A DNA stretch of 63,505 nucleotides, filler included, from Stramenopiles sp. TOSAG23-3 (Eukaryota), in NCBI GenBank assembly GCA_900128585.1. It is 5 parts of 5 records of this genome, joined end to end, with 100 filler letters (N's around TTAATTAATTAA, not from the genome) between each part and the next. Parts side by side here need not be neighbours in the genome. Positions count along the whole stretch, not along the records: positions 38,189 to 50,803 come from LT642677.1; 4 more parts are not named here. One strand, written 5' to 3'. The notes under the pieces were generated by a model. The model made no database searches and was not told where the DNA came from. It saw only the letters and a list, made by a program, of their open reading frames with translations. Positions 12,637-50,903 of this stretch are shown piece after piece. A program made the translations under genes and the position numbers. Each line of letters opens with the position of its first letter. The first letter of the stretch is position 1.

Positions 12637-12736
12637 NNNNNNNNNNNNNNNNNNNNNNNNNNNNNNNNNNNNNNNNNNNNTTAATTAATTAANNNNNNNN
12701 NNNNNNNNNNNNNNNNNNNNNNNNNNNNNNNNNNNN
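12637..12736. other. artificial contig linker (N44-TTAATTAATTAA-N44)
   Basis: Exactly 100 nt with a six-frame stop core; identical at all four junctions. Confidence 0.97.
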
Positions 12737-25367: not shown

Positions 25368-25467
25368 NNNNNNNNNNNNNNNNNNNNNNNNNNNNNNNNN
25401 NNNNNNNNNNNTTAATTAATTAANNNNNNNNNNNNNNNNNNNNNNNNNNNNNNNNNNNNNNNNNNNN
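25368..25467. other. artificial contig linker
   Basis: N44-TTAATTAATTAA-N44. Confidence 0.97.
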
Positions 25468-35924: not shown

Positions 35925-37505
35925 TCACACCGGGGCTACCTCGTACATAACAGTAGTCAGACTCTTCTTCCACGTGTGCAAAATCTTTACGGTATAATTA
36001 TTCAAGCGCCCCTCGTGTACTACAAAATCATTTACGATAGAAACAGGATGACCGCGGGGTGGCCGCTCCTTAAATGTTAGGACCAGCAATGACGCTGGCT
36101 TGGATGGATAACCAGACCGAAACCAGCGCTGGACATCGGACGCTGGAGAAACATCTTTGTTTCCAACAAACGACGTTTCAAAATCTCCATACATTAAAAT
36201 AGTTTTAAATCCCACACGGTCGTTTGATGCTAGCCAGTAATCAAGACGCTGGGCTTGCAGCCCAATGTATGTGTCGTCTAAGCCATTTGGAACTGTTCTG
36301 TTTACCATCTGAAAGTACTGAAGAACGTCGGCTTGCGGTATTACAATCTGGTGGGCACACTTATGAAGTTTTGGAAAATTCGCCATGATTGAATTTGTCG
36401 TTGCCAGGCTTGGCGCATCCAGCAGCAGTAGAATTTCATTTGGATTCTTTGCAAGCCGAGCAGATAGCGACAGTTCCCCGTCCGCCCCATTCTCACAAAC
36501 TGCGTTGTACTGAATAATTCTTCGCAACTCGGTGCAGATCGACTGGTTAACTTTGTCTTTCTCGTCTCTGCTGGCGGCGGAATCGTAAGGAAACTGTGAT
36601 GGAACATCAATGAAAGATTTGTTTTTCTGGGGCTTCTCGTTTCTCCCTGCGGTTGCTTGCAAGAGTGAGTTAATAGAATTGTAATTTCTTTTCTGCTCTG
36701 CTACCGCTGAGTCTTCCAAATCATTTTTGTCGCTTTGCTGCACGCTGTTGCGCAATGGTGGCGTCGTGAGAAAATTGCTGGGACGAACAGCGTTCAGTCT
36801 TTCGTGATACATTCCTAGCTTCCTGTTGGCTTTCATCAGTTTTTCAATTCTCTTGTTTGCTTTTTCCAACTCTTTTTCTATGTCCGTTACTGGGACCAAT
36901 TCTTTATGCATCGGAGATTTAGAAAGAGCGCTACCATAACTGCTGCTCTCCCTCTTGATGTCCTCTTCGCCCCCCAAACGCTTGGAAGGCGTTGGAAACT
37001 CTGGCAAATGCATCACCCAGGAGAAATGCTGAGAATTGCCATGCTTCGACCTCACCCAAAAAAATCTAGCGCATATGTACACTACATACCCTACAGGCCC
37101 AAGGTAACACGCGAGTGCAAGGCATGGCCATAAAACGACTAATGGCATAGAAATGGATATTGCATTTGCGCATATTATGTGCCCTACAAAAAGATCAAAC
37201 GCGAGATAATGCACCCAGCCCAGCAAGCACGTAAAATCGTCAGAAAAGATATTCTGTATGTGCTCAATATAAAAAAACCCGACACTACCTTCGTTACCAT
37301 TCTTTGGTCCAACTTCTGAGCGAATAAACACCGCTGCATACACCAACGACAAAATTAAAGGGAATACAAGAGTATGAACCATAAAATGTAGCAGGTGAAA
37401 CCGGACGTCCCGATGAACCAGCGAAAATAACGCCAAGGCGATCCAACATATAATAGCGAAAACGTTAAATACGAAAAGATACGGGTCCGCAGGGGAGGAC
37501 GACAT
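35925..37505 (-). CDS. ABA4/DUF4281-like membrane domain fused to coiled coil and unknown alpha/beta domain
   Basis: GWVHYLAFDLFVG and YLGPVG in four N-terminal TM helices. Confidence 0.7.
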   Translation of the reverse strand: MSSSPADPYLFVFNVFAIICWIALALFSLVHRDVRFHLLHFMVHTLVFPLILSLVYAAVFIRSEVGPKNGNEGSVGFFYIEHIQNIFSDDFTCLLGWVHYLAFDLFVGHIICANAISISMPLVVLWPCLALACYLGPVGYVVYICARFFWVRSKHGNSQHFSWVMHLPEFPTPSKRLGGEEDIKRESSSYGSALSKSPMHKELVPVTDIEKELEKANKRIEKLMKANRKLGMYHERLNAVRPSNFLTTPPLRNSVQQSDKNDLEDSAVAEQKRNYNSINSLLQATAGRNEKPQKNKSFIDVPSQFPYDSAASRDEKDKVNQSICTELRRIIQYNAVCENGADGELSLSARLAKNPNEILLLLDAPSLATTNSIMANFPKLHKCAHQIVIPQADVLQYFQMVNRTVPNGLDDTYIGLQAQRLDYWLASNDRVGFKTILMYGDFETSFVGNKDVSPASDVQRWFRSGYPSKPASLLVLTFKERPPRGHPVSIVNDFVVHEGRLNNYTVKILHTWKKSLTTVMYEVAPV

Positions 37506-38088
37506 TTTTAAGCTGAAGCCTTCGTAGATCAAGGAGGACGTCTTCACCACTCTGAACAAAAGTACTGCTGCCGTTGCTACTGTTTCATTCGTAGAAAAAT
37601 TGCCTTCTAAGAACTTTCTCTTTCCATTACGGAAACGATACAAAATTCATTCCAGTCCCATTTAAATTATACAAATGTATTTTAATATTCAATTTCGAAG
37701 ACTGCGGACGAAGCAAGACACGCACTCGTCTCCGAACGAAGGAGGAGGACGAGACGGAGAGGCACGAGAAATTTATTTACCCTAATATATAACACTATTT
37801 GTATAAAAATAAGAAGTTCTAAATTTTTAATTATAAGTTCTTCCAGTCTAAATAATTTTTGGGTTTTTTTTTTGTCTGGTGAAGCAGTCCGTCGTCCCCA
37901 AATTATTAATAAATAATTATTTACGAGATCATCTATAATATATATATAATAAGCAAAAGCCAATTGTATAGCTATGTAAATTATACCACTTGCATTTGAT
38001 TTTTTCTAGGTTATATTTAGTTACCAATTTATTAAATATTCAAATTTTGGATTTTAACTACTTCTTTGGATAGTCTAGAACAAGACTA

Positions 38089-38188
38089 NNNNNNNNNNNN
38101 NNNNNNNNNNNNNNNNNNNNNNNNNNNNNNNNTTAATTAATTAANNNNNNNNNNNNNNNNNNNNNNNNNNNNNNNNNNNNNNNNNNNN
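38089..38188. other. artificial contig linker
   Basis: N44-TTAATTAATTAA-N44. Confidence 0.97.
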
Positions 38189-38413
38189 AAATTGCCGAAA
38201 AGGGTGGAATTGAACTTGCCATTGAAGCGTTGAAACGGCACCCAGGGGTGGCAAGAGTTCAGGAATGGGGGTGTTTCCTGCTTGCAAATCTGGCACAAAA
38301 CGATGACAACCAAGTGAAAATTGCCGAAAAGGGTGGAATTGAACTTGCCATTGAAGGGGAACGAAGGAGTTCAGGAAGAGGGGTGTACCATGCTTGCAAA
38401 ATCCCTTAGATAA
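38189..38413 (+). CDS. 3' fragment of armadillo-repeat protein (129-bp near-identical repeat units; last unit has a frameshifting deletion)
   Basis: IAEKGGIELAIEALKRHPGVARVQEWGCFLLANLAQNDDNQVK-IAEKGGIELAIE. ATTGCCGAAAAGGGTGGAATTGAACTTGCCATTGAAG recurs at 38191 and 38320. Confidence 0.75.
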
Positions 38414-38608
38414 TGGTATATAAAATATATTATAATTTTACTTTAGTATGTATACTTTTTTATCAAAATGGGATTCAAAATAGTATCAAACAATTGGGAT
38501 TTGGATCGTTTTGTTGAGTACAATTCGCCTTTACAAAGAAATGAAATATTATCATCTGATAATAATTCTTCTCATTGGACTAGGAATAAAAACAATTCAT
38601 CTGTGATG

Positions 38609-38694
38609 ATGATTGACAACCATCAACGACGAGGGTTGGATTTGAAGTAGTATTTGATTTAAAATGAGAGTCTTAAAACATACTATATATTTTG
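38609..38694 (+). repeat. copy of the dispersed AT-rich element
   Basis: 35-bp exact match to 3363-3397; ATGATTGACAA.CATCAA matches 3531-3548. Confidence 0.8.
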
Positions 38695-38754
38695 TGTTTA
38701 ATTGATGATATCCGTTCTCAGGAGGGAGGTACTTTTATACATCCTTTTTTTCTT

Positions 38755-40872
38755 TCATGCCATCTCCCCAAACCGATCGATCCATGCTTCTAAGCTTCCT
38801 GCAACAATTAGTTCTTGCGCAACGCCGCTTAATGGTGGCATTTTAAGTGTTAACTCTGCGGGCATGGAACGTGGGTCGTCCTTCCCGCTTGACAGCACTA
38901 TTGTTTTTCTTTTAAAATCGAGTTTCAAAGGAAGTTTGGTTCGAACGGTCAGGATGTCCGTCCCAACGGTGTCCAGGAGATGAGCCACCAGCTGGGGGGA
39001 TTCGATGCACAGGACCCCGTTGTTGAATGCGTTCCGTTTGAACGTTTCGCTGAACGACCCGGCCACGATGACGTCAACGCCGCAGGACCTCAGCGCTGTT
39101 GCGGCCTGCTCGCGGGACGAACCACAGCCGAAATTGAACCCGCCCACCAGTATGTCCCCGGCGTTTACGGTCGTGGCAAATGTGGGGTCGTAGTTCTCCA
39201 TGACGAACTTTGCCATGTCCGCGTCCGTCAGGTTCTCCTTGTACGTGTGTGTCCCTGCAAAAATGCCGTCAGTGTTCAAATTGTCCTGGTGGCAAAAGAG
39301 CGCTTCCCCAACGATCGTTTCCGGAAACCCGCCGACCAGGCTTGCCTGGTCGCTCGCACCGCCCTCGCCCTCGCCCTCACCCGCCTCCTCGTCCTCCTCT
39401 CCCTGGACCGGCCCATGCACGGCGTACTGAAACTCCGGCACGCTGTCCTCTTCTGAAAACTCCCCCAAGTAATTCGGGCCGCAGATGATCCCAGCAACGG
39501 CAGAGGCAGCCACGACGGCGGGCGACCCCAAGTACGCTTCGGAGGTCCGCGACCCCATCCGGCCTTTAAAATTCCGGTTTGTCGCTGAAATTCCGACCTC
39601 CCCGTCCTTCAACAGCCCCTTCCCCAAGCCGACGCACGGGCCGCAGCCGCTCGGCAGCGGGATCGCCCCCGCGTCCATGAGCACTTGCCAATCCCCGCGC
39701 TCCCGGCTCGTCGCCTCGACCTCGCTGCTTGCGGCGGCAATGTATAGCTCGACCCCCTCCGCGACCCTTCTCGTGCTCGCCGGGTCCAGGCCCCGGATGA
39801 CGTCCGCCGCGGCCGCCAGGTCGTCGACTCGGCTGTTGACGCAGGACACGATGTACGCTTTCTGGATGGCCACGCGCTCGGCCTCGATCGCTTTCACGCT
39901 GGACATCGTCTTGACGTGGTTCGGGCCCGACACGTGCGGGCGGACGGTCGAAATGTCCAGCTCCAGGTCGACGGCGTACTCGGCGCCCTCGTCCGCGCTG
40001 AGCGCCCCGGCCTCCCACTGCCGCCGCAAGGCGTCCACCACGCCGCCATCGAGGCGAGAGAGCGCGTCCCTGTTTCCCCGCGCGTTCAGCCTCCCCGCAC
40101 GTTCCTCCAGCCACGCCATCGTGACCGCGTCCAGCGGGAACACGCCGGCGATCGCGCCCCACTCCGTGGTCATGTTGGCGACCGTCAAACGGTCGTCGAC
40201 CGTCAGGTCCTTCACCCCGGGCCCGGTGAACTCAATGGCGTGGTTCAATACCTCGTCGTGGTTGAACAGGCCGCACAAAGCGATGATGACGTCCTTGCTC
40301 GTCGCCCCCGTCGCGCGTTGGAGGCTTCCGGTGAGACGGATCCGCCCGATCGGCGGCACCTGCCACCACGTTTGCCCCGTTTTCCAGATGCACGCGGCGT
40401 CGGTGCGGACGACGGGGGTGCCAAGGCAGCCCAGGCCCCCGTACATGTTGGAGTGGCTGTCGCTGGCGACGACCATGCTTCCGGGGAGCACGTACCCCTC
40501 CTCCACCAGCACTTGGTGGCCAATTCCCCGCCCGGCCGGGTAGTGGTTGATCCCGTGCCCGTTTGCAAAGTCGGCGATGGACCGGTACTTTTTCAAATTC
40601 GTCTCGCTCTTGTCCTGAACGTTGTGGTCCAACGTGAACACAATTTGCTTCGGGTCCGCGACGGTCGGCGACGACGCGCCCGCACCCCCAGCGTCCAGCG
40701 TTGCAAACTTTTTCATCACCGCCGCAGTGTTGTCGTGCGTCATCACGTACTTTGGTTGAATCTGAACAAACTCCCCCGTCCTCACGTCACCCTTAACCAC
40801 GCAGGGCGCAACAATCTTTTCGACCAAGGACCGCCGCCCGTGCCGCCCGACTCCGGCGCGCACCGCCGCCAT
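38755..40872 (-). CDS. LYS4: homoaconitase (Lys4-type aconitase-family [4Fe-4S] hydro-lyase, fused large+small domains), mitochondrial
   Basis: MTHDN, GIGHQ, ASDSHSNMYGG, TPVVRTDAA.IW.TG.TWWQ, SCVNSR, CGPCVGLG, SATNRNFKGRMG and NFGCGSSRE motifs; Arg-rich N-terminus. Confidence 0.85.
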   Translation of the reverse strand: MAAVRAGVGRHGRRSLVEKIVAPCVVKGDVRTGEFVQIQPKYVMTHDNTAAVMKKFATLDAGGAGASSPTVADPKQIVFTLDHNVQDKSETNLKKYRSIADFANGHGINHYPAGRGIGHQVLVEEGYVLPGSMVVASDSHSNMYGGLGCLGTPVVRTDAACIWKTGQTWWQVPPIGRIRLTGSLQRATGATSKDVIIALCGLFNHDEVLNHAIEFTGPGVKDLTVDDRLTVANMTTEWGAIAGVFPLDAVTMAWLEERAGRLNARGNRDALSRLDGGVVDALRRQWEAGALSADEGAEYAVDLELDISTVRPHVSGPNHVKTMSSVKAIEAERVAIQKAYIVSCVNSRVDDLAAAADVIRGLDPASTRRVAEGVELYIAAASSEVEATSRERGDWQVLMDAGAIPLPSGCGPCVGLGKGLLKDGEVGISATNRNFKGRMGSRTSEAYLGSPAVVAASAVAGIICGPNYLGEFSEEDSVPEFQYAVHGPVQGEEDEEAGEGEGEGGASDQASLVGGFPETIVGEALFCHQDNLNTDGIFAGTHTYKENLTDADMAKFVMENYDPTFATTVNAGDILVGGFNFGCGSSREQAATALRSCGVDVIVAGSFSETFKRNAFNNGVLCIESPQLVAHLLDTVGTDILTVRTKLPLKLDFKRKTIVLSSGKDDPRSMPAELTLKMPPLSGVAQELIVAGSLEAWIDRFGEMA

Positions 40873-41574
40873 TGTTCAACTCTCGATGTGGACGGGGCAC
40901 AAGGGCGAGCGAGGACTAAGGGTCGGGCGGGGGCGTTGTTCTTCTTCGTGTTCTTGTAATAGAAGAGTGTGATTCTCGAGGTTTTCGTGTAATGTAATTT
41001 GTATCAAATGCATGTCATCTTTTCTTAAATTTAGATAAGCGTAAACAGATTATACACATATATATAGTATTTATATAATATTGGATGTGTCTTGTTGGCC
41101 TTCTTCTTCTTTTTTTTTCCATCTATCTCTTTCTTCTTCTTCTTCTTCTCATTATTATTTTTTGTGTTTTCTTGTTGTTGTTGTTGTTGATTTTTGTGGT
41201 TTAGTTTTTTGCGCTGACTTTTTTCTCTTTACCCTTCATTATGTAAGGTATTCAATATCTTTATCACCATCATGCAAATCGTTGAACGTTTATATCTATT
41301 AATATAATTCAATCTATAATACCATTGGTAAGACAATGTCCTTAATATGAAATTATCTTCGAAAAGCTTAGTTTATTTTATTTAGACACGACGCGCAAAA
41401 CAGTCAACGCTTGTGCAGCAATAATACTAGTCGTCTATTAGTAGCTGGGAGAAGAAAACAATATAGGAGATTAATTCTTCTTTCTTTCATAATTTGAACG
41501 AGGAGTGATCCCCACTGCGTATACCGTTATAAAGTACCACGCTGCGCGCACGCACCCCTCCACCGTTTTCTACC

Positions 41575-43020
41575 TCACAGCTTAACGTTGGAGTCCCCGC
41601 CCCGTGGGATCCACATGGTGTTTTCTCGGCTTGCACGGTTCTCTTCGACGTGGACAATCTTCAACAAATCGTCTTTCAACTTCACCTGCCACGTTCGAAA
41701 CCTCTTGTTCCCTTCGGCATCGAACTGGCGGATTAGGTCAAACGTGTCGGGGAACGGGGCGGCTTTGTAGGAGCCGTAAAAGATAATGCTGGCGTTGGCC
41801 GCATCGTTGCTGTCGATGACCTTTCCCCAGCCAACGATCTTCTCGCTGTCGATCCGGCAAAACCCGGTGTTGTCAAACGCGCCGTGGAACAGGTACGCTT
41901 CCTCCTTCGTGACCTTCCCTGCCTCGTCCTTCCACCAGTACGTGTTCCTTTGGCTGTAGTATTTTCCGTGGATGCCGATGTCGAGCCTGCAGTAGTGGTA
42001 GTCGAGAACTTTCCCGTCCTTCCCAAGGTGGGTGTACGTGCCTTCCCACGACCCAATGTGGTTCACGAACGCTTTCGGGACCCACGGGCACGGGCCCGGC
42101 AGCGTGGCCGGGTCGGTGACGGACCAGTCGACTTTTGGGGCCGCGAGCGCCGAGTGCGGGGGGAAACTGGCCACCCGGCCGCACTGGGAAAGGTCCTGGT
42201 CGACGCGGACCAGGAACAGGCAGCCGTCCGGGCTAATGTGGCGGGGGGATACGGACGCGTAGGGGACGTACCCGTAGTATCCTGCCCTGAAGTTGTGCTC
42301 GCCGTACTCGCACGACCCCTCCAAGCACAGCGCTTCCTCGTTGTAGTTCTGGATGAACGGGTGGTTCGAATCGAAGTGCGGCAGGACGCCAAGGAGCCAC
42401 GTGCCGCCCCCATTCGGGCCCTTCCGCAGCCACTTCTTTCTGGACACGGTGAACTCGGCCGTTTGGGTGCCCCCCCAGGGCTTTGCGTACGAGTCGATTA
42501 TCGGTATGTAGTCGGTGTGGAACGCGGCCCCGGTCGCCTCGCCGGGGGTGAACGTGCACTGCCCGCTCTGCATGAATTGGAGCTCCGTGTCCTCGTCTTT
42601 GAGGTCCCCGTGCGGGCCGTCCGGCTTGTCGGTCTGGAGTACGGCCATTTCGCCGATGACTTGGCCGGCGGGGATGTACGTGTACCCGTGCCTGCGCAAG
42701 ACGATGTTGCCTATTTTCAGCACACCACGCGTCACGAACACCTCGACGTCGCAGCTGAACGACCCGGGCGCGCGCTTGAAGGCGGGCTTCAAGAGCACCG
42801 ACGCCGTCAGGGCCCCGTCCCCTGGTTTTTCCCCTGACCACGACAATGGCTTTACTTGAAGGGATTCGCTACCCAAAGGGAACGACGATTCGACGACGCT
42901 AGTGTCGACGGGAACGTCCCGGATAAAAAACGCTTGGTACGTGGACGGCGTAAACGTGTCCGGACTCGTGTACGTCTTTCGCCCGTCCATGAAGGAGGTG
43001 GTGGTGGTGGTGGTGGCCAT
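41575..43020 (-). CDS. bicupin (DUF4437/ChrR-like) fused to C-terminal lipocalin-like beta-barrel (DUF3598-like)
   Basis: Two cupin patterns (EVFVTRG..KIG....HGYTYIPAG; EEALCLEG...G..F.AGYYGYVP). C-terminal HIGSWEGTY...YSQRNTY is a GxW barrel start. Confidence 0.65.
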   Translation of the reverse strand: MATTTTTTSFMDGRKTYTSPDTFTPSTYQAFFIRDVPVDTSVVESSFPLGSESLQVKPLSWSGEKPGDGALTASVLLKPAFKRAPGSFSCDVEVFVTRGVLKIGNIVLRRHGYTYIPAGQVIGEMAVLQTDKPDGPHGDLKDEDTELQFMQSGQCTFTPGEATGAAFHTDYIPIIDSYAKPWGGTQTAEFTVSRKKWLRKGPNGGGTWLLGVLPHFDSNHPFIQNYNEEALCLEGSCEYGEHNFRAGYYGYVPYASVSPRHISPDGCLFLVRVDQDLSQCGRVASFPPHSALAAPKVDWSVTDPATLPGPCPWVPKAFVNHIGSWEGTYTHLGKDGKVLDYHYCRLDIGIHGKYYSQRNTYWWKDEAGKVTKEEAYLFHGAFDNTGFCRIDSEKIVGWGKVIDSNDAANASIIFYGSYKAAPFPDTFDLIRQFDAEGNKRFRTWQVKLKDDLLKIVHVEENRASRENTMWIPRGGDSNVKL

Positions 43021-44300
43021 CGTGAGTGGTAGTGGTATAGTGGTTGTTGTGTTGGAGGGGGAAAGTGGGTCCGTATAGGTGAGAGAAGGGAGAAATGGAG
43101 AGGAGAGACAGGCAAACCGGCAAACTGTAGGGGAATGGATTCCAAATCAAGTAAATGAAATACAAATTAAATTTATATTAAAATATCTATATTTTATATA
43201 ACAATAATTGTTGGAGTAGTAATTGAGAATTGTTGTTGGGAGCAATTATTATTATTATTTGGAGGAAGAGAAGAGAAGATAATTAATATACACACCAATA
43301 AAATAATAATCACCTTCTTTCTTTCTTTTATCTTCTTCTTTTATTGTTTCTTCTTTCTTCTTCTTCTTTTATCTTTTTTTATTTCTTCTCTCTTCTTCTT
43401 TCTTCTTTTATCTTTCTTCTTCTTTTATTTCTTCTTCTTTTATCTTCTTCTCTTCTTTTATTTCTTCTTTTATTTCTTTCTATCTATCTATCTTCTTCTC
43501 TTCTGATGGAACTAACAGCCTAAGCCTTTTTATATATATACACAGCAGGGTCTATTTTTATACCACAAAATCAATTTCTTTTACTTCTTCTTCAACTAAA
43601 AAAATTAGTTATTTTGGTCTGAAAGGATTTTACACATTTTTTTGTTCTAATTTTTATTTAATTCCTCGTAGACCATAGTCACTATAATACTCATCTTCTA
43701 GCATCCAATTGTCAAAGAAAAAGAATAAAAATAGAATAAAAAAATTCAGTTCAGTTCAGTACTTTTTTTATAGACTAATAACCCACCAATCCATCCATCC
43801 ATCCATCCATCGTCCATTCTATTCTATTCTTATATTAGAGTATCTATTCTTCTATAACTTATTTCTATTTCTTCTTCTATTTATTATTATTATATTTAAT
43901 AATAATAACCATTCATTCAATATTTTACAATCCCACCTATTTCTATATTTTAGTATTTTTATACATTTAATAAAATACTTTTTATTATAATTATATATAT
44001 TTTATAATAATTAAAATATACATACCTTAATTTATATAATACTTCAGTAAATTTTTTTCTTTTTTTTTCTTCTTCTTCAAACAACAAGAAGAAGAACCAA
44101 CAAAGCAAAAAACAAGAAAATGAAGAAAACTCAACTCACTATTCATTTTGTTACATTACACAACCTATGACGTACCAATAGCGTATATGTACATATTTCA
44201 TTATTTCTCTCTTTGTCATTTCTAGCGTCATTTTACATACGCACACACACATTCATTCCTTCTCTCTCTCTTTCTCTCGCCGTCGTTTTACACCACCACC

Positions 44301-45875
44301 ATGCTCTTGTCCACCCTGCCCCTGCGCGCTGCGTCTCGTTTGGCGTCCCGGGCAATGTCGACTGGGGGGACTCCCAACAACGGCCTGGACCTGCTCATAC
44401 AGAACGCCGCGACGGTGCAGGAGAACGACTCGGTCGTGCGCCTCCTTGATTTAGGGGTAAAGGACGGAAAGTTCGTGGAAATCGCCAAAGCCGGGAGCGT
44501 CCAGGCCGACCGGGCCACGGCGGTCCACGACGCGAAAGGGCTCATGGCCTTCCCCGGAGTCGTCGACGCCCACACCCACATTGCAGGAATCTACCAGGAT
44601 ATTGAGCTGGACATGTTCCAAGAGTCCAAGTGCGCCGCGCAGGGCGGGGTGACCACCGTCATGCCGTACATTCGGTCCGGCCAGTGCTACCTGTGGGAGG
44701 GGGGCGCGTACAAGGACCTGTACCAGAAATTCCTTGACCACGCGACGGACAACTACCACTGCGACTACGCGTACCACGTCTCGCCGATCGAGGGCCAGCA
44801 CATTGGGGAGCTCGAGTGGCTCATCAAGGACCAGGGCGTCGTCTCCCTCGGCGAGGTCTTCATGTTCTACGGCCAGCACGGCCTCCACGGGGCCAGGACA
44901 AAGGAGCGCCAGCAGGACTTTCTCATGCTCGAGGCCGACGACGATCGGTACGACCTCGGCCACTACGACTTCGTCCTTCGGGAGCTTGGGAGGCTCGCAG
45001 AGAAGCACCCGGAGCTGAAGGAGTTCATACAGATAGGCTTCCACTGCGAGACCCCGGAGCTGTTGGCAAAGTGGACCAAGCTCGTCCAAGGCCGGGGGGA
45101 CCAAGGGCACAAGGCCTGGTCGGACGCGCGCCCGACCCACAGCGAGGGCCTGGCGATCTGGACCGCCGCGTACCTCTCCGCCAAGGCCAAGGTCCCGAAC
45201 GTCAACATCCTGCACATCACGTGCGCCGATGCCATGGAGGCCGCGCTGAACGTGGAGAAGATCTTCCCAGACGTCAGCTTTGGCAGGGAGGTCACCGCCG
45301 GGCACCTCCTCCTCGACTACCACAGCCTGGACGACAAAGAGCCGTGCTGGATGAAGGTCAACCCGCCCATTCGCTCCCGCGAGGACGTCGAGACCCTCTG
45401 GGAGCACGTCGCGCAAGGGCACGTGGACTGGATCGTCACCGACCACGCGTCCGCGCCGACCGACTTCAAGGTGAACGCCGAGGACCCCACGAACATCTGG
45501 GACGCCAAGGCCGGGTTTGGCGGCGTCGAGTACCTCCTCGCGGGGATATACAGCGAGGGCGTCGTCAATAGGGGCGTCCTCACCCCGCAGGACGTTGCCA
45601 GGATGCTCTGCAGCAACCCCGCCAAACGCTTTGGCCTTGGAAAGTCGAAGGGGTCCATTGCCGTTGGGTACGACGCCGACGTGGCCCTCTTCGACCCGAA
45701 CAAGAAGTGGACCATAGACGCGAACGACTCGTTCTCCACGCAGACGTACACGCCCTTCCAAGGGATCGACGTGACCGGGCAAGTCCAGTCGACCTTTTTG
45801 AGGGGAAAGAAAGTTTTTGACAACGGGGACGTCGTCGGGGCCCCAAGCGGGAAAAACCTCGTCCGACCAATGTAA
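44301..45875 (+). CDS. cyclic amidohydrolase (allantoinase/dihydroorotase/hydantoinase family), mitochondrial-type presequence
   Basis: PGVVDAHTH, GGVTT, FHCE, ILHIT, KVNPPIR, VTDHA, NPAKRFGL and KGSIAVGYDAD motifs. Confidence 0.9.
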   Translation: MLLSTLPLRAASRLASRAMSTGGTPNNGLDLLIQNAATVQENDSVVRLLDLGVKDGKFVEIAKAGSVQADRATAVHDAKGLMAFPGVVDAHTHIAGIYQDIELDMFQESKCAAQGGVTTVMPYIRSGQCYLWEGGAYKDLYQKFLDHATDNYHCDYAYHVSPIEGQHIGELEWLIKDQGVVSLGEVFMFYGQHGLHGARTKERQQDFLMLEADDDRYDLGHYDFVLRELGRLAEKHPELKEFIQIGFHCETPELLAKWTKLVQGRGDQGHKAWSDARPTHSEGLAIWTAAYLSAKAKVPNVNILHITCADAMEAALNVEKIFPDVSFGREVTAGHLLLDYHSLDDKEPCWMKVNPPIRSREDVETLWEHVAQGHVDWIVTDHASAPTDFKVNAEDPTNIWDAKAGFGGVEYLLAGIYSEGVVNRGVLTPQDVARMLCSNPAKRFGLGKSKGSIAVGYDADVALFDPNKKWTIDANDSFSTQTYTPFQGIDVTGQVQSTFLRGKKVFDNGDVVGAPSGKNLVRPM

Positions 45876-46077
45876 AGGGGCAGGCAGGACGGCATTCCGC
45901 TTGAACGATCAACATCTGAATTAAAAATAGTCAAAAATGAAGAAGATAAAATTTTAAATTATGTGCCTAAATTAACAGCCATTATTTTGTTTTTAATGTG
46001 TAATACTACACGTAATAAATTTTAAATACCCAAATAACAGCGCCATTGTTTTGTTGTGAAAAGGCTTTTTATATGTG

Positions 46078-47040
46078 TTACCGCCCCCCACCAACGTTCG
46101 TTGCGCTGGGAAAGCTCCACGGCGCGTCGCTCGAAGGGTCGTACTGAAGCAACTCGTAAAGCTCCTTTCGCACCATCATGTGCTCGTCGTTTGCCTCGGC
46201 CTCGAAGGTGCCGTCTTTCTGCAGCGTGTCGAGCGCCCCGTCCACCGCGCGCATGGCAATGCGGAACAGGCTCATCGGGTAAATGGTCACGTCGTACCCC
46301 AACTCCCCGTACTCCTGCGCCGTCAAGTACGGGCTCACCCCGAACTCGGTCATGTTGGCCAGAAGAAACGGGTGCTCGTCCCCGCCGCTCCCCCCGTGGG
46401 AACTTTTTATCGCGTCCGCAACGTACGCAAACTCCTCCGCCGTTCGAAGGCCCTCGGGGAAGAGCATGTGGGCGCCGGCGTCCGCGTACATCCGCAGGCG
46501 CTCCACCGTGTCGTCCACGGAGCCGTCCGCCACGCCGCGCGCATCCGTGCGGGCACAGACCACAAACCCGTCGTCCCGGGCCGAAGCCTGGACGGCGTCC
46601 GCGCACCGTTTCACCGTGACGGCAAAGTCGTCCGCAGGAACGAGCTCTTTCCCCTGCAAGTGACCGCATCGTTTTGGGAATACCTGGTCCTCAATGTGCA
46701 GCCCGGCGGCCCCCGCTCGAATGTACGCGTGCACGGTCGCCTCCGGGTCTGAAAACCCAGTGTCGGCGTCCGCCAATAGCGGAACCCCAGGGGAAACTGC
46801 GCTTGAAATGTTCCTAATTTTATATTCAAAATCCGTGCAAGCCATGACTCCCACGTCCGGGACACCCGTCAGAGCGCTCGTGCCCCCTCCCGATAAGTAC
46901 AACCCTTGAAACCCTTTATTTACTGCCATGCGAGCAACGATGCCATCGAAACACCCGGGCAAAATCAAAGACCCGTCCGTCTTCCCTGCTGCCCGGCGAG
47001 AACGTAATAATGCACGGAACGCATTTCCTGGAGACGGCAT
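46078..47040 (-). CDS. prpB: 2-methylisocitrate lyase-like (ICL/PEP mutase family, PrpB-type)
   Basis: YLSGG, DADTGF, HIEDQ..PKRCGH, ARTDA, LFPEG and LANMTEFG.SP motifs. Confidence 0.85.
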   Translation of the reverse strand: MPSPGNAFRALLRSRRAAGKTDGSLILPGCFDGIVARMAVNKGFQGLYLSGGGTSALTGVPDVGVMACTDFEYKIRNISSAVSPGVPLLADADTGFSDPEATVHAYIRAGAAGLHIEDQVFPKRCGHLQGKELVPADDFAVTVKRCADAVQASARDDGFVVCARTDARGVADGSVDDTVERLRMYADAGAHMLFPEGLRTAEEFAYVADAIKSSHGGSGGDEHPFLLANMTEFGVSPYLTAQEYGELGYDVTIYPMSLFRIAMRAVDGALDTLQKDGTFEAEANDEHMMVRKELYELLQYDPSSDAPWSFPSATNVGGGR

Positions 47041-47612
47041 GGACGGTGGGGTGCTGGACTTTAATTCTATATATAATTGAGTAAATGCGAATGAACTAAC
47101 AGCAGAAAATAACAATAGAACGAACGGTGTATTACTGATTATTCGATTGTTTTTTTTTAACAGATTTGTCAGGTCGGTTTGTGTGGCTTTCTTCTCATTC
47201 GTTTTCTATTTCATTAAACTCACTTCTTCCGCCGCCGCCCGATGGCTGCTGGGTGCTGGGTTCTTCTTTTCTTCTTTTTTTCTATAAATAATAATATAAT
47301 CACAACAACAAAATCTGCTGACTCGAAAAAAAATGGTCTTTTGCTGTTGTGTTGTTCTGGTAATTGTGGCTGGGTGGTGGTGGTGGTGTTTTCTCAGCAA
47401 TTATTTTAAATTTTAGAAAGAAAGGTTTGAATCCAGAATCAATTTGTTATATCGTTTCTTTTTATTTATTTATCTGTATCCGTCTTTCTTTCTTTACATT
47501 TATTGGTTTTAATTAATGTGCACGCCACAAAGAAGAACATACAACTAATTTCTTTATCTTTATAAACAATATATAGCCGCCTCCACAAAAGGAGTCAGTA
47601 TTAGAGCAAGCA

Positions 47613-48560
47613 ATGGCGGAGAAGAAACGGGGGCCAATACCCCCGCTGCACAACTTTATTTATTCCTCCGTTGCGGCATCGACGGCGGTCCTATTTACCA
47701 ACCCAATAGATGTAGCAAAGACAAGGTTGCAGCTCCAAGGGATAGCGATGGAGCAGGGTACCCAAACGGCGGCAGGGCAGAGATTGTACCGTGGTCCCTT
47801 GGACTGCATTGTGAAAACGGTTAGGGTGGAAGGGTTGACGGGGGCGCAGAGGGGGCTGACGACGGCGATCATTCGAGAAGCCGCCCTTAACTTTTTTCGA
47901 ATTGGAATGTTCGAGCCAGTGCTGCGGTACTATCACCAAGAGGACACCCCGCCCCCCCTTTGGAAAAAGGTTGCGGCCGGCGTGACGACAGGGAGCACCG
48001 CCGCGTTAGTGTGCAACCCGCTGGACCTGATGAAGACGAGGATGCAGGCGCAGGCCAGCGGGGCGAACGCTTCGGTGGGGTACCAACACAAGTTTGCCGG
48101 CGTCTTGGACGGGTTTTCGATGGCAGTGAAGCAAGACGGGGTCCTGGGGTTGTGGAAGGGGGTGTCGCCGAGTCTGCTCCGGCTGGCCCTTGGAAGCTCG
48201 GCGCAGCTTGCGTCGTACAGTCACATTAAAGAGTATGCCTTGGCCAACGAGATCGCCAGCGACGGCCCCCTTCTTCACATTGGCACGAGCTTTGCGTCCG
48301 TCGTGTTCGGAGTGACGGCGATGAATCCCGTGGACGTCGTCCGGACTAGGCTATACAATCAGCAGTCCTCGGCCGGGTCGGGAGGGGACCTCAAGTACCG
48401 CTCGGGGGTCGATGCGGCGTACAAGATTGCACGGTACGAAGGCCCGGGGGCATTCTTCAAAGGGTGGGGGGCCCATTACTTGCGGGGGGCGCCCCACGTG
48501 GCGCTCATTTTTGTTTTGCTGGAGCAGTTGAAGAAGCGCAGGCCCTTGGAGAAGGTGTAG
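47613..48560 (+). CDS. mitochondrial carrier (SLC25), OAC1/SLC25A34-35-like
   Basis: Three Px[D/E]xx[K/R]xR repeats (PIDVAKTRLQLQG, PLDLMKTRMQ, PVDVVRTRLYNQ); GSSAQLASY and R..PH. Confidence 0.88.
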   Translation: MAEKKRGPIPPLHNFIYSSVAASTAVLFTNPIDVAKTRLQLQGIAMEQGTQTAAGQRLYRGPLDCIVKTVRVEGLTGAQRGLTTAIIREAALNFFRIGMFEPVLRYYHQEDTPPPLWKKVAAGVTTGSTAALVCNPLDLMKTRMQAQASGANASVGYQHKFAGVLDGFSMAVKQDGVLGLWKGVSPSLLRLALGSSAQLASYSHIKEYALANEIASDGPLLHIGTSFASVVFGVTAMNPVDVVRTRLYNQQSSAGSGGDLKYRSGVDAAYKIARYEGPGAFFKGWGAHYLRGAPHVALIFVLLEQLKKRRPLEKV

Positions 48561-48715
48561 GAGGAAGGGGGCGAGCTGGTCTCTCCCTGTGTGCAATGGG
48601 AAAAGAGGGGGGGTACTCTGTACTCTTAAATAAGAGCAATAACGTTAAAAAAATGTTTTTCAAATAAAAAATTTCCGCGTAAAGACATTGCACGCGTGTA
48701 CGTTGAACCGCACCC

Positions 48716-50803
48716 TCACTTCACGGCCTTTCCCGCACTGCCCTTCGGCATGTTCACCCTCTTCCTCCCCCCCCATGTCCCTGCGCTTGTAGTAGTGCGG
48801 GGCAATCTCTTGCAGCCACTCCTCCTTGATCGGCGTGATCTGTCGAATGTACTCCTTCGAGGTGTACACCAGCTCGTGGTACACGAGCATGTCCGCGGGC
48901 GTCTCCTCCGACCGGAACAAACTGCTGGAGGGGTGCACGCTGACAACGTGCTTGCTCTTCACCGTGCGGTACGTTCCATTCTTTTGAAACTTTGCCGCGT
49001 TGAAGAAGAAGCCCGCGGTGATGCTCTTGGCGATGGCGATCGGGTTGGAGTTGCTCTTGACGCTTATCTCCACCCTGTCGCACATGGAGCGAAGCTGGGA
49101 GCGAATGTCCCGGGCCTTCTTCATGCTCTTGATCTGAATGAAGTTCTCGAAGCACCACGACTTGCTGCGGTTTGCCTGGACCCACTCGTTGTAGCAATTC
49201 AGCAGCAGGATGTGGTCGCCGTGCCCCCCCCCCGGCCGAACCTTTTCCGCGCGTTGTCGGCGTGGATCTTCTTGCCTTTCGGGCGAAAGAACACGCTGTT
49301 GGACACGTCCAGCATGGCCGCGATGGTGATGCACTCCTCCGTGCACTCGTACGCCTCGCTGGCGATCATCATCTTGGCCAGCTGCGGGTCGGACGGGAAC
49401 TCGGCCATCTTTCGGCCGAGCCGCGTCAGCTCCCCCTTGTTGTTCAGGGCCCCCAGCGCGTACAGCTTCTCGAGGGCCCGCATAAGGGTCTCGGCGGGGG
49501 GGGCGTCCATAAAGTCAAAGTTGATAAGGTTGTTGATGCCGAGACCCTTGAGTAGCAGGATGACGCTGCACAGGTTGGTCCGTTGAATCTCTGGCGTCGT
49601 GTTCTCTGGGAGCTCGTTCTCGTACGCCCATTTGGTGAACAGGCGAAAGGCTTTCCCCGCGCTCGTGCGCCCCGCCCGACCGCTCCGCTGGTTCGCTGCC
49701 GCCCTTGAAATGGGCGTCACGACCAAGCTCTCCATCCCCGTCCTTGGGTTGTAGCTCTTCTGTTTGCAAAACCCCGTGTCGATCACGTACTTGATGCCGT
49801 CGATCGTCAGCGACGTTTCAGCAATGTTCGTCCCCAGGATTACCTTGCGCCCGCCGTTCGGCGGTGCTGGCAAAAATATCTTCGCCTGCTCCTCGCTCGG
49901 CAGCGACGAGTAGATGGGCAGGACGACCAGCTCCTTGATCCGAGACCCGAGGCCCTGCGTCCGTCGCCGGAGCTCCTCCGCCGCGTCTTCTATCTCCTGC
50001 TGCCCCGTGCAAAAGACCAGTATGTCGCCCTCGGGCTGGGTGACGTGTATCTGGAGCACCGTCACCACGACAGCGTCGAGGTAGTTCGCCTCCGGCTGCT
50101 TGCAGTACATCGTGTCGACGGCGAAGCGCCGGCCCGGTATGTTGAAAATCGGCGCGTTGTCAAAGTACCTGCTGAACTTTTTGGCGTCCAGGGTGGCGCT
50201 GGAAATGATGATCTTGATGTCGTCCCGAAACCTTGCAATGTCCTTGATCAGGCCAAAGAGCACGTCCGTGTGCAGCGTGCGCTCGTGCGCCTCGTCGATC
50301 ATAATTGCTATGTAGTCCTTCAGGTCTGGGGTGTTCAGGAACTCCCGCAACAGCATCCCGTCGGTGAGGTACTTTATCACCGTCTTGTCGGACGTGCAGT
50401 CCTCGAAACGGATGGAGTACCCCACCTCTTTCCCTAACCGGACGCCCGCTTCCTCCGCGACCCGCGCGGCCACGCTCATGGCAGCCACTCGCCTCGGCTG
50501 CGTGCAGGCCACTTTTCCTATTTTCGTGTACCCGACTTCGTGCAGGTACTGCGGAATTTGCGTCGTCTTCCCGCTCCCAGTCTCGGCGACGACGACGATG
50601 CACTGGTGCTCCTGGATGGCCCGCAGGAGCGGCTCTCGCCAGGCGTATATTGGTAGCGATTTTCGAACTTCCCCGATCGATAGCGCGCGCTTCGGCAGTG
50701 GGGCGGCGGCGGGGCTGGGCCCCGGGGCCTTTTTCGCCTTTTTCATCCTCTCCCCGCTGCCGTCGACAAAGCCAATGTGCTCTTCGTGCAAAAATGTATT
50801 GTA
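48716..50803 (-). CDS. DHX16: DEAH-box splicing helicase (Prp2/DHX16-like), 5'-partial, two poly-G frameshifts (49224-49233, 48767-48774)
   Basis: [32 protein letters not shown] and QRSGRAGR motifs; HA2 and OB domains; C-terminal KRVNMPKG. Confidence 0.85.
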
Positions 50804-50903
50804 NNNNNNNNNNNNNNNNNNNNNNNNNNNNNNNNNNNNNNNNNNNNTTAATTAATTAANNNNNNNNNNNNNNNNNNNNNNNNNNNNNNNNNNNNNNNNN
50901 NNN
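50804..50903. other. artificial contig linker
   Basis: N44-TTAATTAATTAA-N44. Confidence 0.97.

Follow-up and report, generated by a model that had tools for sequence, protein, structure and literature searches.

Our analysis of a 63,505-base stretch of DNA from Stramenopiles sp. TOSAG23-3, called the window throughout, centres on a divergently transcribed pair of genes, one for a cupin-barrel fusion protein (41575-43020) and one for a cyclic amidohydrolase (44301-45875). We think it somewhat probable that this pair is the only demonstrable functional unit in a longer run of metabolic genes, that it is of bacterial type, and that its neighbours are otherwise ordinary. Judged by sequence, the pair appears to hold three genes of a conserved cyanobacterial cluster, for a DUF4437 cupin, a DUF3598-type barrel and an amidohydrolase, two of them fused and the third adjacent. 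The opening of a small N-heterocycle is probably its most reasonable role. An earlier note on this DNA had proposed that five consecutive genes form a mitochondrial ring-opening catabolic module. Our comparisons speak for the cupin fusion and the amidohydrolase as a pair, and gave no comparative support for the homoaconitase, lyase and carrier genes that make up the rest of the run. The parts of the pair are these:

41575-42135, minus strand: C-terminal 10-strand beta-barrel, DUF3598/nitrobindin-like, residues 296-481 of the fusion protein plus the stop codon (about 190 amino acids), recognised from the fold model and the bacterial loci

42136-43020, minus strand: DUF4437 bicupin domain, residues 1-295 of the fusion protein encoded by 41575-43020 (Pfam PF14499, PDB 2qdr)

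43021-44300, no strand: divergent spacer from cupin fusion to amidohydrolase, 1,280 bp, AT-rich (GC 0.276), low complexity

44301-45875, plus strand: cyclic amidohydrolase belonging to an unnamed subfamily, short of every NCBIfam equivalog cut-off

The window consists of five pieces of about 12.6 kb joined by paired runs of 44 N (joins at 12637-12736, 25368-25467, 38089-38188 and 50804-50903), and adjacency across the joins is artificial. The five-gene run sits on piece 4 (38189-50803), which is gene-dense and intron-poor, with six long open reading frames (ORFs) and no obvious introns seen. Pfam and NCBIfam scans recovered all five of the ORFs that the earlier note had listed, each with the family it had been given, and the divergent arrangement of the cupin fusion and the amidohydrolase around one AT-rich spacer of 1,280 bp is as the note described it. 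Within that spacer we found no ORF of at least 200 amino acids, no tRNA and no Rfam match, and one 93-residue ORF (43709-43990, plus strand); the whole of 38189-50803 is likewise without tRNA genes or Rfam families. Long low-complexity tracts of the CTT/TTC type occur in the piece-4 spacers, at 43290-43500 and 41100-41200. As a candidate regulatory motif shared among three upstream spacers, a single 11-mer was common to two of them, at 43509-43519 (cupin/amidohydrolase spacer) and 47093-47103 (lyase/carrier spacer) and nowhere else in the window; it was rejected, since at least two matches arose in 15 of 100 shuffles.

The N-terminal half of the fusion protein is a DUF4437 domain. PF14499 matches residues 63-279 with 95.6 bits against a gathering score of 24, and the Nostoc punctiforme structure 2qdr matches residues 60-289 at 3.7e-51. 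Complete fusions are rare: five of the 22 matches in a word-based search were full length, and an exhaustive search of 1.84 billion representatives gave 106 matches with only three full-length fusion clusters. An Atlas search with the fusion returned DUF4437 clusters only and no feature match, a PDB profile search with the cupin alignment returned 2qdr plus two non-significant matches, and a plasmid search returned one weak match, in Nonomuraea, to the barrel part only. The fusion has no N-terminal extension. Literature searches gave no mention of DUF4437, nothing functional on DUF3598 and nothing relevant on Npun_F5605/2QDR.

An AlphaFold model of the C-terminal domain, built with 26 aligned relatives, is a 10-strand barrel (pLDDT 92.6, pTM 0.86). 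The Pfam model PF12204 (DUF3598_N) gives the window domain 14.9 bits against a gathering score of 22 (E=0.037) and matches 18 of the 26 aligned relatives, and the barrel profile finds PDB 2o62 at an E-value of 0.0023. Foldseek matched the model to BFA1 (7.5e-5, TM score 0.56-0.59), to 2o62, to Rv0813 and the nitrobindin domain of THAP4, to Arabidopsis nitrobindin (TM by query 0.61-0.62) and to the S-type phycobiliprotein lyase CpeS (1.1e-3, TM 0.53). Across these matches TM by query spans 0.53-0.62 and sequence identity is 8-14%, too low for ligand or activity to be transferred from any of them. The model points to a ligand-binding calycin-type barrel, a fold several members of which hold heme or bilins, and we take it no further. 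In the barrel alignment His47, Gln62, Asn64, Tyr66, Asp70, Arg145, Arg147 and Glu165 (domain numbering) are conserved polar residues, a pattern that suggests a specific polar ligand or a catalytic site. Two side observations touch this gene family. Several stand-alone relatives of the barrel domain carry long N-termini resembling transit peptides, and an ORF on piece 3 (35925-37643) encodes an ABA4-like domain (PF14108, 65.9 bits), of a family characteristic of cyanobacteria and plastid-bearing lineages. Together they hint at an algal connection of the barrel gene family.

The amidohydrolase is a clear member of its superfamily, matched by the D-hydantoinase structure 1nfg at 1.1e-37, and falls short of every named function in NCBIfam: allantoinase (207.2 bits against a cut-off of 357.85), D-hydantoinase (197.3 against 393.25), ErtD (199.8 against 650) and pyrC_multi (196.3 against 279.05). 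A profile of its family lies at the same distance from allantoinase, L-hydantoinase and D-hydantoinase. In the 22 members aligned out of 120 listed relatives the metal ligands H91, H93, H248, H305 and D381 are invariant, and with the HxH, His, His and Asp positions kept the enzyme is predicted to be catalytically competent. At the position of the carboxylated lysine it has glutamate, reading GEVFMFYG where 1nfg has FKVFMAY and the cyanobacterial relatives have SFKIFMFYG. In this superfamily glutamate can take over the bridging role of carboxy-lysine. This position is Gly-Glu in 44 of the 120 listed relatives and Lys in 75, with one unclassified; the Gly-Glu group holds all seven eukaryote-type sequences and the named Chloroflexota, and the Lys group the cyanobacteria and actinobacteria. 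This identifies a natural Glu-for-carboxy-Lys variant of the cyclic amidohydrolases. About 28 residues resembling a presequence precede the start of the alignment to bacterial relatives.

The evidence that links the two genes comes from bacterial gene neighbourhoods. We aligned 21 of the 22 fusion relatives (P0006, a fragment, was omitted) and scanned bacterial and archaeal genomes with the alignment. There were 160 pattern matches, of which 108 passed confirmation, and we kept the best 80. These are the 80 loci referred to below; a neighbour is a gene within 10 kb of the cupin, and window proteins were compared with the loci by tblastn. All 80 belong to cyanobacteria or to metagenome-assembled genomes, and their cupins are 35-40% identical to the N-terminal domain. 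The amidohydrolase has a match in 58 loci, full length at 47-50% identity in 57 and a 145-residue fragment in one. In 41 of the 57 it directly adjoins the cupin, always convergently, with a median gap of 68 bp. The barrel, searched with the C-terminal 186 residues, is a separate gene of about 148 codons near the cupin in 27 loci, at 26-31% identity. The fusion architecture itself was not found in the 80 loci. These neighbourhoods (57/80 for the amidohydrolase, 27/80 for the barrel) lend support to the functional pairing of amidohydrolase and cupin-barrel protein that the earlier note had suggested. Since their counterparts are neighbours in cyanobacteria, the eukaryotic protein can be read as a fusion of two cluster genes beside a third.

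The cluster extends beyond these three. Locus ORFs were called with a crude caller (at least 90 amino acids, overlaps removed greedily) and grouped by single linkage at at least 30% identity and at least 60% coverage, a procedure that may undercount divergent members, and cluster representatives were scanned against Pfam and NCBIfam. The recurrent neighbours were:

MDR / quinone-reductase-like (ene-reductase-like): 57/80 loci, 22/32 genus-level groups

Amidohydrolase: 57/80 loci, 19/32 genus-level groups

AspH-like oxygenase (PF05118): 55/80 loci, 17/32 genus-level groups

SnoaL_2: 45/80 loci, 15/32 genus-level groups

DUF3598 barrel: 27/80 loci, 24/32 genus-level groups

HisRS: 19/80 loci, 13/32 genus-level groups

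Aldehyde dehydrogenase (SSADH-like): 18/80 loci, 16/32 genus-level groups

CN-hydrolase: 17/80 loci, 15/32 genus-level groups

Alpha/beta-hydrolase: 16/80 loci, 13/32 genus-level groups

A methyltransferase is found in 23 loci, and five or six have an ABM-fold gene after the cupin. Gene order differs between Nostocales, Leptolyngbyales and Oscillatoriales and gene content persists, the signature of a functional cluster. A conserved cyanobacterial cluster of eight or more families, without published function, is defined in this way. Of its families only the cupin, the barrel, the amidohydrolase and a PrpB-like lyase have counterparts in the window. In some loci an agmatinase/arginase-family ureohydrolase lies beside the CN-hydrolase end (L007 14490-15587, L072 16718-17806, two Oscillatoriales-type loci), which hints at a guanidino or ureido intermediate. 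The HisRS is full length (TIGR00442, 364.3 bits against 286.75) and stands between the barrel gene and the cupin gene on the same strand (for example L018 8283-9671 and L009 8477-9865), in many Nostocales and one Leptolyngbyaceae locus.

These counts bear directly on whether the genes are linked at all. Gene order in eukaryotes is mostly non-functional, and every adjacency on piece 4, that of cupin and amidohydrolase included, might be chance or neutral synteny. We regard this as very improbable: the three domains lie near one another in as many as 24 of the 32 genus-level groups of cyanobacteria, and in the eukaryote two of them are fused with the third adjacent. Such a conserved three-domain neighbourhood would be very unlikely without common descent or selection, and the shuffled gene orders across cyanobacterial orders argue against an artefact of closely related genomes.

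The composition of piece 4 answers a different doubt, namely that the pair is bacterial contamination or a chimeric join within a eukaryotic contig. Relatives of both genes are indeed mainly bacterial. The contig itself is eukaryotic, marked so by its carrier and helicase genes, and GC content at third codon positions (GC3) is 0.74-0.87 in all six piece-4 genes, these two included. In codon usage the pair correlates with the helicase and homoaconitase genes (r 0.76-0.86). With codon usage correlated and GC3 uniform over the six genes, the pair is not a chimeric join. Intergenic composition is also alike throughout the piece (coding GC 0.60-0.63; spacer GC 0.28-0.36, with one short spacer at 0.455). 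The existence of eukaryote-type relatives at 71-81% identity with presequence-like extensions, and the absence of the fusion architecture from the bacterial loci examined, argue the same way, and we consider contamination or misjoining exceedingly unlikely.

We return to the favoured reading, that the pair is a retained part of the bacterial cluster acting on a small N-heterocycle. The scheme that follows, in its substrate class, order of steps, catabolic direction and compartment, is one that we infer. The binuclear-metal amidohydrolase, with glutamate at the bridging carboxy-lysine position, would hydrolyse the cyclic amide, imide or ureide bond of the heterocycle, and the cupin-barrel protein would bind and oxidise or isomerise that compound or a precursor of it. 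Further steps in bacteria might be carried out by the ene-reductase-like MDR protein, the AspH-like 2-oxoglutarate oxygenase, the SnoaL-like protein and the aldehyde dehydrogenase, with the CN-hydrolase removing an amide or carbamoyl group. Lys-type homologues of the amidohydrolase on two actinobacterial replicons offer single examples of other contexts. On Rhodococcus gordoniae pDND3A (L081, 123375-144817) the order is an FAD-binding protein (PF00890, FAD_binding_2), the amidohydrolase, a family-III CoA-transferase and an MFS transporter, and the region also holds an IclR regulator, an HpcH-type CoA-ester lyase, a cyclase, an MmgE/PrpD protein, an amidase and hydantoinase A/B; it looks like a candidate island for cyclic-imide or lactam catabolism. 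In Streptomyces the homologue comes after two ABC uptake systems. Both contexts, one example each, fit uptake and ring opening followed by organic-acid catabolism.

The same cyanobacterial families could be read in the opposite direction. The cupin-barrel protein and amidohydrolase might serve biosynthesis or tailoring, of a modified amino-acid-derived heterocycle for instance, with the amidohydrolase working in the direction of ring closure or processing. SnoaL-like (45/80), AspH-like (55/80), methyltransferase (23/80) and ABM (5-6/80) genes represent families often met in natural-product clusters, and the HisRS between barrel and cupin in 19/80 loci could be a resistance or substrate-activating copy. 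However, no nonribosomal peptide synthetase, polyketide synthase, ligase or exporter is consistently present in the cluster loci, and the CN-hydrolase, aldehyde dehydrogenase and ene-reductase-like MDR protein fit degradation better. The uptake systems and organic-acid catabolism of the actinobacterial contexts point away from biosynthesis too, and a eukaryote that kept two genes only is hard to square with a multi-step biosynthetic route. We therefore judge a biosynthetic role unlikely.

Two trees describe the ancestry of the pair. The cupin tree has 49 rows (7 fusions, 16 other matches and 26 of the 80 locus cupins; L027, L042 and L063 are represented by a paralogue picked by length and placed in a distant clade). 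It unites the fusions and the cluster-type cyanobacterial cupins in one group (support 100), apart from other DUF4437 proteins, with the fusions outside the cyanobacterial clade. The amidohydrolase tree has 63 rows (31 of 44 Glu-type, 20 of 75 Lys-type and 12 of 57 locus-derived sequences) and forms a three-clan star, with support of 100 for the eukaryote-type clan (6 rows), 99 for Glu-type bacteria and 100 for the Lys type; in this tree the eukaryotic clan is nested in neither bacterial clan.

Three of the remaining genes of piece 4, those for the homoaconitase, lyase and carrier, are most simply explained as ordinary nearby genes of lysine synthesis, propionate catabolism and mitochondrial transport. 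The remaining genes are:

38755-40872, minus strand: homoaconitase of the Lys4 type, fused large and small subunit (Pfam Aconitase 335.4 bits, Aconitase_C 72.5 bits)

46078-47040, minus strand: PrpB-type lyase (methylisocitrate-lyase-like), convergent with the amidohydrolase across a 202-bp gap

47613-48560, plus strand: mitochondrial carrier, OAC1/SLC25A35/ODC-like, divergent from the lyase across a 572-bp spacer

48660-50791, minus strand: DEAH-box helicase, non-metabolic, the sixth gene (Pfam DEAD, Helicase_C, HA2, OB_NTP_bind)

The homoaconitase scores 766.1 bits on TIGR00139 against a cut-off of 529.9, over residues 16-699 of 705, and 95.2 bits on the LeuD/DmdB model, below its cut-off of 108.95. 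The lyase lies below the cut-offs of both PrpB models (TIGR02317, 253.9 against 354.4; NF008455, 201.9 against 353) and aligns end to end with E. coli PrpB (1mum). It shares with PrpB the catalytic-cysteine gating loop KRCGH, where dimethylmalate lyase 3fa3 differs. Its further motifs ANMTEFG and YPMSLFR resemble those of E. coli PrpB (ANITEFG, YPLSAFR) rather than those of 3fa3 (LNMVEHG, FPFAALG). These motifs define substrate specificity among such lyases. At 46-49% identity, the nearest named relatives of the lyase bear the name methylisocitrate lyase and come from dinoflagellates, ciliates and Platyproteum; proteins of Phycisphaerales are equally close (46-49%). The fifth gene proved to be a mitochondrial carrier, as claimed, with three Mito_carr repeats (Pfam, 196.5 bits); Atlas features tie at 0.95 between clusters of 2-oxodicarboxylate carrier (ODC2), SLC25A35-like and UCP2-like proteins, and the best Atlas structure match is an 'oxaloacetate transport protein' cluster (TM 0.87).

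Three genes had been credited with mitochondrial-type N-termini. This is clear for the amidohydrolase alone (about 28 residues); the homoaconitase has an extension of about 15 residues, and the cupin fusion and the lyase have none. The lyase ORF had been listed from TTG 47115, and the methionine of ATG 47040 aligns with residue 2 of E. coli PrpB; the protein therefore most likely starts at ATG 47040, without an N-terminal extension or presequence.

A run of five metabolic genes is indeed present, but a sixth gene on the same piece, the helicase, ends it. The helicase is split into two ORFs whose frame shifts exactly at a C10 run (49224-49233; G10 on the coding strand), a pattern more like an error in homopolymer length than an intron. 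The contrast with four other contigs of mixed function, on which the earlier note had leaned, is weak. GC3 in seven genes sampled on the other four pieces is 0.47-0.67, against 0.74-0.87 on piece 4, and their codon usage correlates poorly with it; piece 4 may derive from a different organism or bin, or represent a region of the genome with a composition of its own, and because of this difference in GC3 the other contigs may be an unfair background. Piece 5 also has an adjacent metabolic pair (2-oxoglutarate dehydrogenase E1 beside argininosuccinate lyase), and small-molecule enzymes account for about 4-5 of the 21 large ORFs found outside piece 4. By a rough estimate several runs of five would be expected in a genome of about 10,000 genes, so the run alone is not beyond chance.

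The most ambitious alternative is that all five genes form one mitochondrial catabolic pathway for a dialkylmaleimide derived from tetrapyrrole breakdown, such as hematinic acid imide. The amidohydrolase would open the imide, deamidation would give 2-(2-carboxyethyl)-3-methylmaleate, the homoaconitase-type enzyme would hydrate it, the PrpB-type lyase would cleave the product to pyruvate and glutarate, and the carrier would move the acids. The idea is chemically coherent because opened and deamidated hematinic acid imide would be a methyl-substituted cis-homoaconitate, open to hydration and cleavage of this kind, for which the LeuCD-like dimethylmaleate hydratase and the dimethylmalate lyase of Eubacterium barkeri are a precedent. 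It has the physical adjacency of the genes in its favour, together with the resemblance of the barrel to heme- and bilin-binding barrels (nitrobindin, TM 0.61-0.62; CpeS, 0.53), a PrpD-family protein and a C-C lyase in the Rhodococcus context, and excerpts of PMC7318184 that report hematinic acid and maleimides as chlorophyll and heme breakdown products and describe their further fate as open.

The cyanobacterial loci add to both sides. Four of the 80 have a red chlorophyll catabolite reductase (RCCR) homologue at the head of the operon-like array, 29-60 bp upstream of the CN-hydrolase (PF06405, 79.1 bits against 24.9; Arabidopsis RCCR 3agb at 6.8e-11). The RCCR-/bilin-reductase-family homologues are at:

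L018, 1234-2010

L009, 4135-4935

L023, 4446-5267

L064, 4440-5189

However, these represent just three of the 32 genus-level groups, all of them Nostocales. Three loci (L007, L014, L063) have a PrpB-like gene no more than 10 kb from the cupin. The encoded proteins are 28-36% identical to the window lyase, carry ANMVEFG or ANIVEGG with Val for Thr in two of the three, and are not its orthologues, given their different subtype and low identity; as support for a lyase link they were set aside as too weak. In tblastn, none of the 80 has a homoaconitase homologue, another aconitase-family gene or a carrier homologue in the neighbourhood of the cupin. These bacterial neighbourhoods, in which the earlier note had proposed to look for LeuCD and PrpB homologues, did not support its module (0/80 for the aconitase family, 3/80 for PrpB-like genes of another subtype).

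Further points count against a five-gene pathway. The homoaconitase is above the Lys4 equivalog cut-off, the motifs of the lyase are still those of PrpB, suited to methylisocitrate and not visibly adapted, and the cupin fusion is without a presequence. The likeness of the barrel to heme and bilin binders is at superfamily level (8-14% identity), and the shared 11-mer was equalled in 15 of 100 shuffles. Independent evidence for one common pathway, of the kind that would mark a metabolic cluster of three or more genes, was found for two genes only. We hold the five-gene pathway to be improbable, unproven rather than refuted.

It is nevertheless tempting to speculate on tetrapyrroles. A linear tetrapyrrole or pyrrole fragment is a reasonable candidate substrate in view of the RCCR-like gene, the ABM gene and the barrel fold, and so far the link is based on the fold and the RCCR-like gene found in 4/80 loci. 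As a long shot, the five genes might serve the mitochondrial salvage of monopyrrole fragments from heme, bilin or chlorophyll breakdown. The cupin-barrel protein would then bind a linear tetrapyrrole or pyrrolinone and release or prepare a dialkylmaleimide, the Glu-type amidohydrolase would be the imidase, the homoaconitase-type enzyme would hydrate the deamidated 2-(2-carboxyethyl)-3-methylmaleate, the lyase would yield pyruvate and glutarate, and the carrier would exchange acids. The cyanobacterial cluster, with its RCCR homologue in some Nostocales, would be a bacterial version of the upper pathway. In excerpts of PMC7318184 the further fate of hematinic acid and alkylmaleimides from chlorophyll and heme breakdown is described as open; if the tetrapyrrole link is true, these genes would address the fate of the small pyrrolic end products of both.

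Several observations weigh against our preferred reading of an isolated, catabolic and bacterial-type pair. The check for transfer by phylogeny yields neither a donor nor a direction from either tree, and the DUF4437 and amidohydrolase families contain no member with a tested function. The cupin fusion without and the amidohydrolase with a presequence-like N-terminus may work in different compartments. HisRS (19/80), methyltransferase (23/80), SnoaL-like and AspH-like genes would also suit a biosynthetic cluster. Finally, the amidohydrolase relative P0027 and the lyase relative P0148 come from the same source, each with a longest contig of 6,625 bp, which hints that the adjacency of amidohydrolase and lyase is conserved; this hint of synteny would favour a five-gene pathway, the lyase may be no mere bystander, and a wider cluster is left possible. 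With these points in the balance, the divergent pair as a retained bacterial unit is still the reading we favour. Part of a cyanobacterial cluster, present as a fused, still adjoining pair in a eukaryotic lineage, offers a testable entry to an unknown N-heterocycle pathway, and without the tetrapyrrole link it would still be a tidy case of bacterial gene linkage retained in a protist.

The hydantoinases 1nfg and 1gkr, allantoinase AllB (3e74) and dihydropyrimidinase share superfamily and fold with the window amidohydrolase by sequence (1e-37 to 1e-57), and the HxH/His/His/Asp metal ligands of known cyclic amidohydrolases recur in it. Unlike the solved enzymes, the window protein has Glu and an inserted Gly in place of the carboxylated Lys, which places it on a eukaryotic and Chloroflexota-type branch; it also has an unaligned region of about 85 residues and scores below every curated equivalog. 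For the fusion protein, 2qdr (DUF4437) resembles the N-terminal domain and the barrels 2o62, 5yvf (BFA1), 2a13 and 4tq2 resemble the C-terminal model (TM 0.53-0.62). No function is known for 2qdr and 2o62; BFA1 serves as an assembly factor, and nitrobindin is a heme binder. The lyase and hydratase look like ordinary members of the methylcitrate cycle (PrpB) and the alpha-aminoadipate route (Lys4), although the lyase, unlike bacterial PrpB, is under the family cut-off (253.9 against 354.4). Lys4 is described as mitochondrial in fungi in excerpts of PMC3556520.

Nicotinate fermentation in Eubacterium barkeri uses an enamidase, the LeuCD-like dimethylmaleate hydratase DmdAB and the dimethylmalate lyase Dml. 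A ring opener of the amidohydrolase superfamily, an aconitase-family hydratase and a lyase of the phosphoenolpyruvate mutase/isocitrate lyase family are thus families that the window has as well. Unlike those of E. barkeri, the window hydratase is a fused homoaconitase of Lys4 type (95.2 against 108.95 on the LeuD/DmdB model) and the lyase has PrpB motifs, and the three families were joined in no bacterial locus examined.

In yeasts, two sources (bioRxiv 10.1101/399394; PMC11043216) report the horizontal transfer of an enterobactin gene operon whose bacterial neighbours are still neighbours, and PMC11043216 mentions a host gene integrated with the transferred genes. Unlike in that case, two genes (three domains) are kept here, fused or divergent rather than collinear, and the trees leave the donor unnamed.

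A eukaryotic parallel in logic is found in the hxn clusters of Aspergillus nidulans, where, according to excerpts of PMC9304392 that also mention ring opening in E. barkeri, an N-heterocycle is reduced or oxidised, undergoes hydrolytic opening through a cyclic imidase (HxnM) and is deamidated by HxnN. The enzyme families differ, HxnM being polysaccharide-deacetylase-like and unrelated to ours, and the hxn pathway described in those excerpts is experimentally proven and has a dedicated regulator, whereas here two linked genes are known by sequence. The hxn genes are nevertheless eukaryotic and clustered, and the logic they follow in these excerpts is the same as that which we infer for the bacterial cluster.

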